Positions 5,945-42,390 of a stretch of DNA of 64,000 nucleotides are shown here, one piece after another (position 1 is the first letter of the stretch; each line of letters starts with the position of its first letter). The DNA is taken from IMG/VR virus record IMGVR_UViG_3300045988_112441; one strand, given 5' to 3'. Under the pieces are notes generated by a model. It was not told where the DNA came from. It worked only from the letters and a program-made list of their open reading frames with translations, and did no database searches. The position numbers were made by a program, and so were the translations under genes. The DNA comes from a virus.

Positions 5945-6157
5945 TCAATCTACAAACACAAATGGGGCACTAAAAAAGTTCTCCCCAACAATCATATTTT
6001 CTTCAGATAAAGAAACCTTGATAACTTCATCGTCAGTATGCGTTTCATCATATTCTGCTGTATCGCAGAGCTTGTTAAACTCTCCGTCATTCTTAACGAA
6101 CAGTGTTCCCTTCCCAAGCTCAATTGGTTTCTTTTCTTCTCGAATATGTGCTTTCAT
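5945..6157 (-). CDS. Hypothetical protein
   Basis: ORF track. Confidence 0.35.
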   Translation of the reverse strand: MKAHIREEKKPIELGKGTLFVKNDGEFNKLCDTAEYDETHTDDEVIKVSLSEENMIVGENFFSAPFVFVD

Positions 6158-38018: not shown

Positions 38019-38254
38019 TCCTTTTTGGCAAATTTACTCCAATCCATCTTGTGATGACAATCAGAACACTCACACTCGAACTTTTCCAGCTTCGTCACAC
38101 AAAACGGACAGAGATACGTGTTCTTATCCTTCTGGAAGATAGGACTTGCCGGAAGGCTCAAGGAGCCGTGATCGATAGTTACATTGATAGGAATTTTGCT
38201 GTTCATCATGTCACCTCTTGTTTGAATTAGCCTTTTATGAGATTTTCTTATCAA
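38015..38254 (-). CDS. Small zinc-ribbon protein
   Basis: CPFCVTKLEKFECECSDCHH. Confidence 0.4.
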   Translation of the reverse strand: MIRKSHKRLIQTRGDMMNSKIPINVTIDHGSLSLPASPIFQKDKNTYLCPFCVTKLEKFECECSDCHHKMDWSKFAKKE

Positions 38255-38727
38255 GTTTTCGTAACTCTAACTTACTGGGAAGAAAATTTCTACAGAAGTA
38301 TGCACTTCCAAAAGACACTCCCTCGACAGGGCTGTCTGCGTGTTTAGGGTCCATGAATCCTATTCGAGAATCAAAACACAGCATCTGTACATCATTTTTG
38401 AAGATGTCAAATCGTGTCTTACCCTGAATACTATTTGCAGGAAGTAGTAGAGCAAACGGCTTTTTAAGCTCATAGGCTCTACGCAATACTTCATCCTTCC
38501 TACTAAAAGGAGGGTTTGAAATCATAATATCCCAATATTCCGGTTCGTATGTAAAGAAATCTTGTCCGTTATCAATGTGGCTATATTCTACTTTATATCC
38601 AGCATTTCTGAACACCTGCACAAAGGCAGACCACTCTTTATCAAACGGACACCAAATCACTGTTTTACTCGACGGGGGGCAAATTCAAGCAATGGAATAA
38701 CCGCGTAAACCGGTGTGTATCGCTCAT
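38235..38727 (-). pseudogene. Phage Dam-like N6-adenine DNA methyltransferase interrupted by a +1 frameshift in a G6/C6 tract
   Basis: C-terminal part has the NPPF motif (IMISNPPFSRKD...LLLPANS). An ATG at 38727 encodes MSDTHRFTRLFHCLNLPP and runs into poly-G 38674-38679. Deleting one G yields a contiguous protein of about 160 aa with a WCPFD (DPF-like) motif. Confidence 0.5.
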
Positions 38728-38777
38728 CGCCTACCGCAGATCGGTCAGCTGTTAAATATCCTTTATTTTCTGGCAAA

Positions 38778-40242
38778 TTATCCTCCTTGCTTTTCTGGAA
38801 AATGCTTCTTAGTTACTGCAACGCAGAACGGTTCAATTTCAGATCCCCAGATAGCAGTACCATCACCATACGTACTTTCAAAGACAAGCGGAAAGCCACC
38901 GATTCCATCAAAAAGACTGCCAAGCGTAGGATTCTCACCGATATACGGCTTCATTTTCTGGAAAATCCAATACCACTGAGGCAATGCAATCGAATTGCCG
39001 AGCGCCTTGTAACGAGGAGAATCAGCTGGTTTGTGCTTTTTACCATTCTCATCAACCCACTCGCCAATATCAGTCCATCCATCAGGGAACCCTTGAAGTC
39101 GTTCACACTCGACAGGAGTCAGGCGACGAACAATCCATTGCAGATTCTTCGTTTCCTTCTCTGCAATCAAGTCAGTAGCATCCTTGTAGTCACGAGATTT
39201 CATCGTACTAGCTTGTTCACTTTCCTTGTATTCACCAATGCGTTGCATTGCAAAGGTTTTCTTTTCAGCAACAAGCGGCATATTATTGCCACCAGTCCCC
39301 CATTGAGCCGTACAAGCCGGACTTGTGTCGCCCTGTTGAGTGTATCGAGCATCCTGACTGTGACTCTCAAACACCACCGGCGAAATCTTTTGTTTTGAAT
39401 TATGTAAAGAGGTGTTGTCTGCCAAGCAAATTAACGTTTGATCTTGCAATGTAGAAAGCGTTGCGCTCTTCTCGATTTGTACCAGTGCGCCTTTGCCACC
39501 ACCTTCGCATCCTGAACGAATCTTTAAAGTGTAGGCAACAGCATTACGGTCAATAGTGTTTATAGTGAAAGCAGTATCTTCTTTTACACCAGTCCCATTC
39601 ATGTTGGTTTCTCTGTCAATCATGTTTCCGACGATACAAAAGCTTTTTTCTCCCACCACTCGATCATTTCCAACAATGCATTTTTCAGCAATTCTGGCAG
39701 CACCTTGCCACGTCGGGATGCTCTCGTCAGAATTCCCTGGCACGCCCGTGCGCTCAAATAATATCTTTGCGGCACGTTGTCCTCCAAAATCCATGACAAG
39801 CGCGATTCTTTGACGACGTTGGGGCACTCCCCAGTATTGAGCATCGAAGAGTCTCCATGCCAAAGACCATCCATTACCGGAAATTGCGCCGGATTTAGAC
39901 CATTTTCCACCTTTTTCCGAAGGTTTAGGAATTGTAGCGTCTGCTTCGACGATGTGTGCAAATTCTTCCAAGACACATCGGAAGTCTTCTCCGTTGTTTG
40001 AGGAGAGTGCTCCTCTAACATTTTCCCAGATTGCAAATTTTGGATATTCTCCATTGGTGGTATCCCTCATTTCTTTTATCACACGAATCATTTCCATAAA
40101 TAGACCAGACCGTTCTCCAGCCAAACCTGCCCGCTTACCGGCAATAGAAAGATCTTGGCTAACAAGGTGAACCACCAGTGATACACGAGACAGGTTCAAT
40201 CTTAGAACCATCAATCTCGCAAATACTTCCATAATGTTTCAC
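38778..40242 (-). CDS. C5-cytosine DNA methyltransferase-like gene, motif order IV-X then I-II, disrupted at the catalytic Pro-Cys codon
   Basis: Motifs in order: ENV (VI), QRRQR (VIII), TRD, RLTPVECERLQGFP (IX), GNSIALP (X), then LFDGIGGF (I) and SEIEPFCVAVTKKHFP (II) at the C-terminus. The GGSPC part of motif IV lies in an upstream frame (GTG at 40242 with a GGAGG RBS). A 4-nt TTAG insertion at 40159-40162 ends that frame with TAG. The ATG at 40232 then gives a protein that reads VSQDLS where motif IV should read PCQDLS. Confidence 0.65.
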
Positions 40243-40259
40243 CAAACCACCTCCTTTTC

Positions 40260-40277
40260 GTATCCTGTGTTACATAG
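40260..40277 (-). promoter_or_regulatory. Conserved 18-bp element, copy e (GTATCCTGTGTTACATAG)
   Basis: Just upstream of the GAAAAGGAGGTGG RBS of the C5-methyltransferase gene. Confidence 0.5.
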
Positions 40278-40383: not shown

Positions 40384-40464
40384 TGGTGGGACATGTCGGA
40401 CTTGAACCGTGATACATATGCTCAGTTATGAGCTGAGTTCTCTAACCAATTGAGATAATGTCCC
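40384..40464 (-). tRNA. tRNA-Met/Ile2 (anticodon CAT), atypical
   Basis: Perfect acceptor (GGGACAT/ATGTCCC), D-arm and anticodon arm (CTCAG-CTCATAA-CTGAG), and an encoded CCA. The variable region is about 9 nt and the T-stem has only 3 bp (mismatches at 49:65 and 50:64). Confidence 0.45.
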
Positions 40465-40653
40465 ATAAAAACCAGTTAAATAGCTGCAACTATTCAACTG
40501 GGCACCTTCCTTATAAAACACTATTGCATCTATATCATATAGACGAGGAAGGAATAACAGCGATGCACATTTCCTATATCTCGCCCCTTTCGGGGTGGTA
40601 TCTCGCACAGGCGCGGCCGGATCTGACCGCCAAAGATCCTACCCATACGAGAT

Positions 40654-40728
40654 TGGAGCAGCGAAAGGTAGTCGAAACCTCATCCTCAGCTTGGAAGGCT
40701 GATGTACTAGCCGTTGTACGACCGCCGC
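40654..40728 (-). tRNA. tRNA-Gly (anticodon TCC) with a G3:U70 pair
   Basis: Full cloverleaf: acceptor GCGGCGG/TCGCTGC with G3:U70 and G7:U66, D-arm GTAC-AACGGCTA-GTAC, anticodon loop CTTCCAA, T-arm GAGGT-TTCGACT-ACCTT, U73 and CCA. Confidence 0.6.
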
Positions 40729-40831
40729 ATGAAAACCCAGCTTACAAAACACTACTGCACCATCACTGGCGAGCTGGGAATAATAGTGGTCAAAGGATAT
40801 CAACAAACGGTACGCAACCATTCTATGACCG

Positions 40832-40916
40832 TGGTGCCACAGGCGAGACTCAAACTCGCAAGCCTTTCGGCGTCTACCCCTAAAATAGATGTGTAGGTCA
40901 ATTCCACCACTGTGGC
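40832..40916 (-). tRNA. tRNA-Leu (anticodon TAG), class II
   Basis: 85 nt. Acceptor GCCACAG/CTGTGGC, anticodon stem TCTAT/GTAGA, loop TTTAGGG, variable arm CGCCGAAAGGCTT, T-arm GCGAG-TTTGAGT-CTCGC, A73 and CCA. Confidence 0.65.
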
Positions 40917-40923
40917 ATATAAA

Positions 40924-40997
40924 TTGCGCCGGAAAGAATCGAACTTTCGCAATCGGGACTTCAAAGGACCCTGCCTTAACCGCTTGGCTACGACGCA
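40924..40997 (-). tRNA. tRNA-Gln (anticodon TTG)
   Basis: Acceptor TGCGTCG/CGGCGCA, Gln-like D-arm GCCAAGCGGTTAAGGC, anticodon loop CTTTGAA with a U:U mismatch in the stem, T-arm GAAAG-TTCGATT-CTTTC. No encoded CCA. Confidence 0.6.
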
Positions 40998-41093
40998 TTA
41001 TATACTTGGCTTGCTGTGTCCTATTGCTCCATTTTTGGAGAGCCAAGAATAATAGGAAAGGTATTTTATGAAAAGCATGTTGGGAAACCAACT

Positions 41094-41166
41094 GGTCGAA
41101 AACGTCAGATTTGAACTGCAACTCCTGCTCCCAAAGCAGGCGTGTTACCATTACACCACGTTCTCG
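41094..41166 (-). tRNA. tRNA-Pro (anticodon TGG), atypical
   Basis: C1:G72 acceptor (CGAGAAC/GTTTTCG), A73 and CCA. Anticodon arm CCTGC-TTTGGGA-GCAGG. One extra nucleotide at positions 8-9, and a weak T-stem. Confidence 0.5.
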
Positions 41167-41169
41167 ATA

Positions 41170-41257
41170 TGGTGCCGCAGGTGGGATTCAAACCCACGAT
41201 CCATATTTCAGGCGTCCCGGTTTAAGCGGGAAATGTATGTCACTCCATCACTGCGGC
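41170..41257 (-). tRNA. tRNA-Leu (anticodon TAA), class II-like
   Basis: 88 nt. Acceptor GCCGCAG/CTGCGGC, anticodon stem TCCCG/CGGGA, loop CTTAAAC, 17-nt variable region, T-arm GTGGG-TTTGAAT-CCCAC, A73 and CCA. Confidence 0.5.
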
Positions 41258-41301: not shown

Positions 41302-42198
41302 TTAATTTTCCTCTTTACTGTTCATATCTAATTTTCTGTATGGTAAATCATAATACTTGCACCATTTACGTATGGCATTTCCTGATACTCCATATTTTCT
41401 TCCAACATCTTGAAAGGACATTGAAGCTGTGTCTACCATCAATTGTTCTTTATCAGGAAAATCAATGCGTTTACTGTAAGGATTTCCTTTTAAACAATTT
41501 TTACAGAGACATCCTTTTGCACGCGGACTCATTTCTTTTCCGCATATTGAACAATATTTGATTTTTCTTCTTTTTCTTTCTTTTTTCTCACGGATAACCT
41601 TTTCACGTGGAATTTGAGTTACGTTGTTTTCAATCATTAGTTGCCTTGCTTTGTCATACCACACTCTCGCAGAATAATAAATTCCAACTTTTTCAAGAGC
41701 GGCATTTATAGTTGATGTTGTTTTTAACGCATCAAGAAAATCTTTATCGCTCACAGTCTTGTATTTCCCGATATTATTTTTGCACCAATTATCAGTTTGT
41801 GCATGACAATTCGGGCAAAGCAACTGAAGATTGTCTAATTCATTATTTATGTGGTTTCCGTCAATATGATGTACTTGCAATGGAATCTGTTTGCCCATCT
41901 ATTCAGAGTTTCCACAACATTCACACTTATATGGTTTGATAGAAAGAAGTGCGGATTTTAAATCCTTTATTCGTCTTCCATTTTTAAAACGAGACAAATC
42001 CACGTTCCCTTTATTCTAGCCCTGCCCAGTGAAATGAGAAGTATTTATATTGTGCGCTTTTGCATAATCTTGAAGTACGTGATTCGTACTTCCACCATTT
42101 TTTGAATATCCAAGCTTCTCCGCAACCGCAGCCTAACTTTTGCTTTCCTCAAAAGCTTGCTCAATTTCTTCTTTTGTAAGTTTATCAATCTTTTTCAT
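41302..42198 (-). CDS. HNH homing endonuclease as one continuous 299-codon frame with three in-frame TAG codons
   Basis: GGAGG RBS before the ATG at 42198. Frame reads MKKIDKLTKEEIEQAFEESKS-TAG-38 aa (KLGYSKNGGSTNHVLQDYAKAHNI...)-TAG-38 aa (...KPYKCECCGNSE)-TAG-MGKQIPLQVHHIDGNHINNELDNLQLLCPNCH... TAGs at 42133-35, 42016-18 and 41899-901. No other stops or frameshifts; ORF-track coordinates confirm they share one frame. Confidence 0.7.
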
Positions 42199-42390
42199 AA
42201 AATGCCTCCAACATCTAATAAATGAATATTCGGACTCTGGTGCCAAGGACGGTATTCGAAACCGCATGTGTTTCCACAGCGAGGTTTGGGCTCGCCCTGT
42301 CTCCCATTTGCAGCACCTTGGCATATATTGCCGGTCTTTCCCGGCTGTCAGCCCCGCTCAGGGCATTTTCGGAGGAAGAAAATGTCTTAA

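Follow-up and report, generated by a model that had tools for sequence, protein, structure and literature searches.

A circularly permuted phage cytosine-5 methyltransferase gene with a conserved TAG junction at its catalytic Pro-Cys and probable programmed recoding

The virus record IMGVR_UViG_3300045988_112441 (IMG/VR) was analysed as one stretch of 64,000 nucleotides, referred to here as the window, and this report concerns a gene on its minus strand that encodes a putative DNA (cytosine-5) methyltransferase. The motifs of the encoded protein were in circularly permuted order, and its reading frame was interrupted directly after the catalytic Pro-Cys by an in-frame TAG and one extra base. 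This junction was conserved among highly diverged phages, selection switched from one reading frame to another at the TAG, and the nucleotides immediately upstream were constrained at synonymous sites. These features are probably the signature of programmed recoding, most likely a +1 ribosomal frameshift at UGU_UAG_N. A first-pass annotation of the window had described the permutation and the interruption of the Pro-Cys and had considered the gene dead; it was partly supported, the first two points being correct and the last one not supported.

Coordinates are positions in the whole window, and all features lie on the minus strand. “Repaired protein” designates frame A joined to frame B after removal of four nucleotides; labels of the form L### refer to fetched loci and P#### to database proteins. 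The layout of the gene was as follows:

40256-40250, minus strand: Shine-Dalgarno sequence AAGGAGG, 7 nucleotides before the GTG start
40242-40162, minus strand: frame A, GTG and 26 codons (VKHYGSICEIDGSKIEPVSCITGGSPC), with the region of motif III and the part of motif IV that ends at the catalytic Pro-Cys
40162-40176, minus strand: conserved element GGT GGT TCA CCT TGT, directly 5' of the TAG, with synonymous-site constraint
40158-40161, minus strand: putative recoding site, the in-frame TAG (40161-40159) and an extra C (40158), four nucleotides absent from intact alleles
38778-40157, minus strand: frame B, QDLSIAGKR… from the CAA at 40157 to the stop at 38778 (459 codons and stop), with motifs V-VIII, a long modular target-recognition region and motifs IX, X, I and II, in this order
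38796-38915, minus strand: C-terminal block of motifs I-II, corresponding to the S-adenosylmethionine-binding start of the canonical enzyme (alignment to M.HhaI)
38892-38915, minus strand: motif I, LFDGIGGF (alignment to M.HhaI)
38796-38843, minus strand: motif II, SEIEPFCVAVTKKHFP (alignment to M.HhaI; the region after LFDGIGGF was also given as SEIEPFCVAVTKKHFPEKQGG)

The GTG start at 40242 and its GGAGG ribosome-binding site, both noted in the first pass, were found again, the latter as part of AAGGAGG. The open reading frame (ORF) listed by the gene finder, 484 residues from an ATG (40232-38778), corresponded to frame B and opened with 25 out-of-frame residues (MEVFARLMVLRLNLSRVSLVVHLVS), and it misses motif IV, as had been described.

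Motif order and permutation breakpoint

The repaired protein (486 residues) matched the Pfam family PF00145 (E = 4e-37, 128.8 bits for a cut-off of 22) and phrog_116, “DNA methyltransferase” (5.9e-75), in agreement with its initial identification as a cytosine-5 methyltransferase. The motif set was complete: LFDGIGGF, GGSPC/Q (the slash marks the junction), ENV, QRRQR, RRLTPVECERLQGFP (motif IX) and GNSIALP each aligned to its counterpart in M.HhaI. In the numbering of the repaired protein, motif IV occupied residues 23-31, VI 68-74, VIII 140-148, IX 371-385, X 414-420, I 442-449 and II 466-481. A phmmer search against solved structures aligned the query to M.HhaI in four pieces: residues 441-485 to M.HhaI 16-58 (motifs I-II), 4-89 to 58-136 (III/IV-VI), 125-148 to 146-169 (VIII) and 370-419 to 271-308 (IX-X). 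Motif X precedes motif I in one frame, and there is one full motif set, in the order III/IV-X then I-II, as first proposed.

On M.HhaI the permutation breakpoint fell at residue 58, in the interval that separates motif II from motif III. The protein both finishes and begins at this one residue, the mark of an exact circular permutation and not of two adjacent truncated genes. The alternative previously considered, a fusion of two methyltransferase fragments, was not supported by the distribution of the rotated order, which was common to all relatives examined, that is dozens of database proteins and 80 IMG/VR loci (the closest relatives, from phage genomes of about 130-138 kb). It was present in alleles with an intact PCQ (P0105, P0120 and L054), in the isolated Faecalibacterium phage FP_Toutatis and in GC-rich or distant lineages (L329, L195 and L444); judged from these alignments, the permutation is a family trait and not a one-off fusion. 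The start codon at the homologous position was ATG (L001, L054 and FP_Toutatis), GTG or CTG, which places the beginning of the protein at M/V/L-K-H-Y-G-D-I. The ratio of non-synonymous to synonymous variation (pN/pS) in the motif I-II block was 0.07-0.08.

The gene is accordingly annotated as that of a naturally circularly permuted phage DNA (cytosine-5) methyltransferase with predicted catalysis, and its long modular target-recognition region suggests an enzyme of the multispecific, anti-restriction type. The Bacillus phage multispecific methyltransferases SPR, phi3T and rho11s differ in having the canonical motif order and no recoding. Like the natural permuted enzymes M.BssHII, M.Alw26I, M2.Eco31I, M.Esp3I and M2.BsaI, the protein carries all ten motifs in one rotated chain. 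The natural permuted cytosine-5 methyltransferases in REBASE in 2018 were all permuted in the variable region, with no natural Class B (PMC5944983). [quoted passage not shown] Because of this breakpoint, the present family is assigned to a natural Class B permutation, abundant in gut phages; no earlier report of a natural Class B cytosine-5 methyltransferase was found in the literature searched. By analogy, the activity of the engineered permutants gives indirect support to the folding of the permuted segments as one domain.

The TAG junction and the proposed change of frame

The window contained exactly four bases more than its intact relatives (…CCNTGC-CAAGA…), which may be written as TTAG or TAGC. 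Frame A ends in GGSPC and downstream reading continues in the +1 frame, the PC and the Q of motif IV being encoded in different frames. The first-pass annotation had located this insertion correctly, with the TAG right after the catalytic Cys and the shift of frame, and its remark that decoding of the TAG alone would not restore the frame also holds, frame B being the +1 frame of frame A.

Dozens of independent assemblies shared the frameshifted N-terminus. Of the 80 closest loci, 52 had an intact GGSPCQDLS and 28 had the junction of the window, all of the latter reading …ACTGGTGGTTCACCTTGT TAGC CAAGA…. The intact PCQ that had been proposed for checking in homologues was thus present in most of these relatives, whereas no uninterrupted version of the GTG-start allele was found in IMG/VR or the JGI metagenomes. 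The TGT-TAG-N-CAR junction was present in more than 150 independent contigs (84 unique haplotypes), in several target-recognition backgrounds and also in a split variant. PC-TAG-C-QDLS with other Pro codons occurred in 6 loci whose genes were about 55-70% identical to that of the window, and a relaxed pattern scan gave at least 120 further loci (at least 114 with TAGA and at least 5 with TAGT) on phage contigs of 22-135 kb, a spread that makes the junction far older than the phage group of the window. An assembly artefact, put forward earlier as a condition that would overturn the finding, was ruled out by this independent recurrence, and an error of sequencing or assembly in this contig has a practically negligible probability: the identical junction was shared by contigs from many samples, assemblers and collections, and it does not lie in a homopolymer. 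Nothing was found in favour of an error at the junction, the error-prone kind of site being that of a neighbouring homopolymer frameshift (C6, 38674-38679).

The architecture was nearly universal: a strong Shine-Dalgarno sequence (GGAGGTGATTTAG), GTG, exactly 27 codons, TGT, TAG, one base and CAR GAY, with a start region shared by the recoded relatives, GGAGGTG(A/G)TTT(A/G)G-GTG. Frame A was always 27 codons long. Among 99 pattern matches, which include chance matches (most of the rows without GTG, and some TAGC rows outside methyltransferase genes), the start was GTG in about 92% and the fourth base after TAG was A in 58, C in 37, T in 4 and G in 0. Versions of the junction with TAA or TGA were searched for and none was found, and a search for the junction in methyltransferases of the PCQxFS type gave nothing beyond a chance match. 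The lowest amino-acid identity among the 84 haplotypes, over 57 codons around the site, was 0.40, and the mean pairwise difference at four-fold sites was 0.57, which is near saturation. The retention of the junction in hundreds of diverged phages argues that the interruption is not damage.

The sole case of PC-TAG-C-QDLS in a gene of canonical order, with motifs I-II upstream in frame, was seen in L332 (IMGVR_UViG_3300021400_001327, locus position 6099); this gene was further disrupted downstream of the junction.

Selection changed frame at the TAG. Upstream of it (53 unique haplotypes), frame A had a pN/pS of 0.20 and stops in 0 haplotypes, and frame B a pN/pS of 1.6 and stops in 10 of 27 columns. 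In the first 40 codons past the junction, the pN/pS of frame B was 0.24 and that of the other two frames about 2 (wrong frames overall, 1.6-2.5). Frame B being closed or unconstrained upstream, the change of frame would occur at the very end of frame A, after decoding of the Cys. The 27 frame-A codons showed 9 synonymous and 3 non-synonymous variants in the clade of the window, and the pN/pS of the whole gene was 0.14 in the frameshifted group and 0.16 in intact alleles. The residues G-G-S-P-C were unchanged in 84 of 85 profiled haplotypes, and the Cys never varied.

The 12-15 nucleotides before the TAG (GGTGGTTCACCTTGT) were constrained at synonymous sites. Synonymous entropy at GGT GGT TCA CCT TGT was 0.38, 0.51, 0.22, 0.49 and 0.00 bits respectively, versus 1.3-2.1 bits for comparable nearby codons, and the mean pairwise difference at four-fold sites was 0.11 for codons -5 to -2 versus 0.57 generally; TGT was used in 100% of the haplotypes and CCT in 92%. 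The per-codon profile gave no synonymous-site constraint 3' of the site. A 3' stimulatory structure was rejected as a candidate, downstream synonymous sites being unconstrained and the predicted folds differing between lineages. The 5' element holds a Shine-Dalgarno-like GGUGG and an anti-Shine-Dalgarno-like UCACCU, and UUCACCU is complementary to the initiation region (AGGUGAA), to the Shine-Dalgarno sequence (AGGUGA) and to the neighbouring GGUG (a hairpin of 4-5 bp). The pairing tables for UUCACCU consisted mostly of invariant pairs (for instance, U-A changed to C-G in 2 haplotypes, versus 4 mismatches), and covariations were too few to choose among the helix partners (start region, Shine-Dalgarno sequence or local hairpin). 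Three marks of a frameshift site were present: a position conserved in diverged homologues, a frame switch of selection and a synonymous-site signal.

These data do not agree with the earlier interpretation of the gene as inactivated and catalytically dead, given a junction kept in 84 near-saturated haplotypes, selection on both frames, a preserved GGSPC and 15 constrained nucleotides. A more elaborate version, in which the insertion is a successful null allele that switches the enzyme off, to the benefit of the phage against methylation-dependent restriction, and that persists and spreads by recombination while frequent exchange with functional alleles preserves the rest of the gene, would fit the mosaic nature of the gene (in L003 an intact N-terminal module is joined to a body almost the same as that of the window), the other null mutations found at low frequency in both allele groups, and the state of the neighbouring N6-adenine methyltransferase, whose frame in the window is broken as well, in a run of six C. 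This version is nevertheless very unlikely: despite near-saturated synonymous divergence, the frames are open with a pN/pS of about 0.2 on both sides, 27 codons that would be useless are still under selection with GGSPC essentially unchanged, and searches of IMG/VR and the JGI metagenomes gave no uninterrupted N-terminal module of this kind that could act as recombination donor. A null allele cannot explain the selection on the 27-codon ORF, the retained catalytic Cys or the localised synonymous-site constraint at the site.

Programmed recoding would proceed as follows. Ribosomes would initiate at the GTG behind its strong ribosome-binding site, translate 27 codons to the catalytic Pro-Cys and meet the UAG, and a fraction of them would change frame at UGU_UAG_N rather than terminate. 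In the most likely event, a +1 shift at P-site UGU and A-site UAG, the U of UAG would be skipped and AGN read. This codon is AGC (Ser) in the window, which would give …GGSPC-S-QDLSIAGKR…; most relatives have AGA (Arg) instead, and a few have AGT. Possible aids are slow decoding of a UAG that stands before A, C or U, the wobble-paired codons in the P and E sites (UGU and CCU), and the conserved upstream GGUGGUUCACCU element, which probably contributes. A slow stop, wobble-paired P- and E-site codons, an upstream Shine-Dalgarno-like GGUGG and constraint on the 5' side only are features that fit stop-dependent +1 sites. The default product would be a 27-residue peptide and the full-length enzyme a minor one, the likely purpose being to hold methyltransferase output low or to make it conditional on termination efficiency. 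The recoded alleles would in this way pair a strong ribosome-binding site with an inefficient recoding step, and in the sister alleles that keep PCQ, low output seems to come from a CTG start instead.

A hop of +4, with re-pairing of tRNA-Cys on AGC (two positions), would give the canonical PCQ; this candidate was undermined by the commoner TAGA, as AGA cannot pair.

Several points weigh against a +1 shift at this site. The trans-frame product is a prediction, and any single +1 event would place an extra residue between the catalytic Cys and the conserved Gln, while no intact gene encoding PC-S-QDLS was found in IMG/VR. Neither in +1 (UGU to GUU) nor on AGA after a +4 hop does tRNA-Cys (GCA) re-pair, so the site is not a classical slippery one and the shift would be of the occlusion type. 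At prfB, +1 shifting is stimulated by a Shine-Dalgarno-like element 3 nucleotides from the P-site codon; here GGUGG lies 7 nucleotides upstream of the P-site UGU and the stop is UAG, which departs from a site of the prfB type. The junction seems to have a single origin, being confined to the PCQDLS family and to TAG, and part of the local conservation could for this reason reflect linkage. Single nonsense mutations (CAA to TAA, TGG to TGA and GGA to TGA) were present in L016 and L018, which are TAG-junction alleles, and in L078, which is intact, indicating that the phages can at times do without the enzyme, at low frequency in either allele group. An AlphaFold2 model of the enzyme, built on a shallow alignment, was unusable, with a predicted local distance difference test score (pLDDT) of 29.

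Some of the same data could be accommodated by an enzyme in two pieces, the 27-residue peptide being released at the TAG, the large part being made separately and both assembling non-covalently into an active methyltransferase; in one variant, termination would be followed by reinitiation at a frame-B GTG created by GGT GGT, 5-6 codons upstream. This GTG was present in 73 of 79 haplotypes, and over codons -5 to -1 the third-position conservation in frame A equals the second-position conservation in frame B. Related enzymes are split elsewhere, namely L053, L056-58 and L068, within the target-recognition region, by TAA, AAGGAGG and TTG, which shows that splitting is tolerated in the family. When M.MpeI is divided between motifs II and III, its fragments complement one another (PMC5944983), and M.EcoHK31I is a natural two-chain enzyme (PMC2836561). 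The frame-B GTG nevertheless has no Shine-Dalgarno sequence, L195 and L444, whose repaired ORFs are full length, lack any frame-B start there, frame B contains stops ahead of the junction and has a pN/pS of 1.6 in that part, the frame-B peptide is variable (VVHLV, VAHRV, EAHPV and AVRPV), and the break would come immediately behind the nucleophile, within the catalytic loop. Separate initiation of the large part was rejected: no start codon for it was conserved, and none with a Shine-Dalgarno sequence, and the frame-B GTG was absent from some intact genes. A two-piece enzyme is accordingly considered improbable.

The exclusive use of TAG, never TAA or TGA, could point to a dedicated tRNA of phage or host. 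Such a tRNA would either be an amber suppressor acting together with a shift or read UAGN as a quadruplet through an enlarged anticodon loop, and synthesis of the methyltransferase would depend on its expression. The fourth base may be A, C or T, as expected for quadruplet reading of UAGN, and the gene adjoins a phage tRNA cluster. TAG is also rare as a stop: the 71 stop-to-stop ORFs of at least 100 codons on the minus strand of the window ended in TAA (38), TGA (31) or TAG (2). No long ORF was interrupted by TAG, however, no tRNA with a CUA anticodon or an 8-nucleotide loop was found in the 64-kb window of a genome of about 135 kb, and neighbouring tRNA sets were identical in phages with intact and frameshifted alleles, which makes this explanation quite unlikely. 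A special tRNA beside the gene in frameshifted phages was discarded, the same set, including the tRNA-Met(CAT) just upstream, accompanying intact alleles too. The TAG link to two other findings, noted in the first pass, received no support as genome-wide reassignment of TAG, which was likewise rejected for these 64 kb, with no TAG-interrupted long ORF and no CUA tRNA. Programmed recoding, probably by a +1 ribosomal shift, is thus retained as the preferred reading of the junction.

The nested frame, related alleles and neighbouring genes

A second ORF was found inside the methyltransferase gene:

39620-40054, minus strand: nested ORF of 144 residues in the +1 frame of the main gene, with its own ATG preceded by GAGGGA

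Only the C-terminal 75 residues or so of the nested ORF (…ESRLSWILEDNVPQRYYLSARACQGILTRASRRGKVLPELLKNALLEMIEWW…) were constrained, the first 60 or so being unconstrained. Codon-position variability was inverted at residues 151-195 of the main protein (entropy of 0.3-0.76 at position 1 and 0.05-0.18 at position 3), and at residues 151-197 the main frame was free of purifying selection (pN/pS of 1.35), which acted instead on the +1 frame (0.16). The values were 0.17 and 0.54 respectively at residues 125-150 (motif VIII), and 0.07-0.09 and 1.4-2.4 in the rest of the gene. The nested ORF was open and conserved in 223 fetched loci, and the alternative-frame ATG was present in 77 of 81 haplotypes, often behind GGGAGG. 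A tblastn search found it in 141 GenBank phages of several bacterial phyla (Vibrio, Mycobacterium, Escherichia, Streptococcus, Pasteurella and others), in every case inside an annotated cytosine-5 methyltransferase gene. In Streptococcus phage Javan191 and Vibrio phage CP-T1, whose methyltransferase genes are of canonical order, it again occupied the +1 frame. The nested ORF had no match in Pfam, NCBIfam or PDB. The last 60 residues or so were predicted with confidence as three helices, matching no known fold, and its YLSARACQGIL only loosely resembles RLTPVECERLQ of motif IX. No report of the nested ORF was found in the literature searched.

The nearest known parallel is M.EcoHK31I, whose alpha gene contains, in a different reading frame, the coding sequence of a beta chain that can do without its first 42 residues (PMC2836561). 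The two systems are alike in having a second polypeptide in another frame, with an N-terminal part that is dispensable in beta and unconstrained here. They differ in that M.EcoHK31I beta supplies the motif IX lacking in alpha, whereas the main frame has its own motif IX here and the nested module has no family or fold match. The nested product could be a second subunit, a regulator or something else.

In FP_Toutatis (L454, MG711466.1, 6463-7874), a G9 tract lies between motifs VI and VIII, and a near-identical metagenome contig (L001) has G10. The G10 form encodes a full-length permuted methyltransferase, and the G9 form fuses the N-terminal part to the nested +1-frame module; two methyltransferase coding sequences are annotated in the GenBank record of FP_Toutatis because of this fusion.

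Related alleles were variable in other ways. Among L002-L082, 49 of the 52 intact (“a-type”) alleles had CTG as the only possible start, with an in-frame TGA two codons upstream (locus position about 4001), and the intact alleles showed an out-of-frame ATG 7 nucleotides upstream of the CTG (…GGAGGAATGAAAACTG…), a layout in which either the weak CTG would serve as start or translation would enter the gene by a +1 slip on AAA_A. A sub-clade of TAG-junction alleles (L053, L056, L057, L058 and L068) was also split at about codon 239, with a TAA, AAGGAGG and an in-frame TTG restart, as a natural two-ORF version of the enzyme. P0089 carried an intein (PF14890) in motif VI (ENV/C…HN/C, the slashes marking its ends), and P0108 and L066-L069 (L066, L067 and L069 in a second list) carried an HNH/HTH homing endonuclease in frame inside motif IX (…RLQGFPE, about 180 residues, GWTDIG…). 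Target-recognition modules were gained and lost among relatives. The mobile-element insertions and rearrangements fit a functional gene under selection.

The adjacent gene (38235-38776, minus strand, TTG start at 38776) encoded an N6-adenine methyltransferase similar to the EcoRI methylase, with an NPPF motif, and was broken at a run of six C (38674-38679). Most related loci had one more C and read through as …EFAPPSS(E/K)AVIWCPFD…; three haplotypes, that of the window included, shared the broken form, which could reflect homopolymer phase variation or a sequencing error. Directly upstream of the cytosine-5 methyltransferase there were seven tRNA genes (40384-41257 and 42238-42322), for Met-CAT, Gly-TCC, Leu-TAG, Gln-TTG, Pro-TGG, Leu-TAA and Leu-CAA, with an HNH-endonuclease-like ORF (41302-41898, minus strand) between two of them. 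The tRNA-Met predicted by ARAGORN was 81 nucleotides long in the window and 77 in relatives, and an Rfam search of the region returned nothing but tRNAs. The GenBank relatives, Faecalibacterium and Ruminococcus phages, are the basis of a putative host assignment.

Implications and comparison with known recoding systems

One tentative overall reading, given slightly less than even weight, is that the three forward frames of one phage methyltransferase gene are all in use by design. Frame A would serve as far as the catalytic Cys, frame B would be reached by an ancient UAG-dependent +1 shift without re-pairing, and a third frame would encode the separately initiated nested protein; the enzyme would at the same time be the first natural Class B permutant. 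On this reading, the shift may gauge release factor 1 (RF1) activity or termination efficiency, or keep a potentially harmful multispecific enzyme at trace levels.

If the frame change were confirmed, bacteria or their phages would have a new, abundant type of recoding site that follows unusual rules: it would work at UGU_UAG_N, with no stop other than UAG and no re-pairing, its signal would be confined to the 5' side, and it would lie inside a catalytic motif. Hundreds of natural variants would be available for studying stop-triggered +1 shifts in Bacillota. Gene callers report these genes as N-terminally truncated methyltransferases devoid of the catalytic Cys, as a result of which the methylation capacity and the anti-restriction repertoires of gut phages are mis-scored. 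The nested gene would be a widely conserved, unannotated protein in a large class of phage cytosine-5 methyltransferases and may explain features of their specificity or regulation. The permutation topology that protein engineering found to be optimal (PMC5944983) occurs naturally in this enzyme.

The literature searched contained no bacterial or phage example of frameshifting at UGU_UAG and no report of recoding at a PC motif, and the closest parallels come from other stop-dependent sites. The prfB site, CUU_UGA_C, resembles the junction in its early in-frame stop at the shift site, +1 target frame, wobble-paired P-site codon, upstream purine-rich Shine-Dalgarno-like element, constraint on the 5' side without a 3' structure and short non-shifted peptide. 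It differs in its stop, which is UGA and not the RF1-read UAG, in its P-site codon, since CUU can re-pair on UUU and UGU cannot re-pair, and in the spacing of the Shine-Dalgarno-like element, 3 nucleotides from the P codon versus about 7 here; nor is there an obvious autoregulatory logic in a phage DNA methyltransferase with the site within a catalytic motif. The antizyme site UCC_UGA_U and the Euplotes sites AAA_UAA/UAG are eukaryotic and have other stimulators (polyamines and a pseudoknot, or the genome-wide context). UAG can act as a shifty stop in Euplotes, and both systems would be like the junction described here in that the first base of the stop is passed over with no re-pairing of the P-site tRNA.

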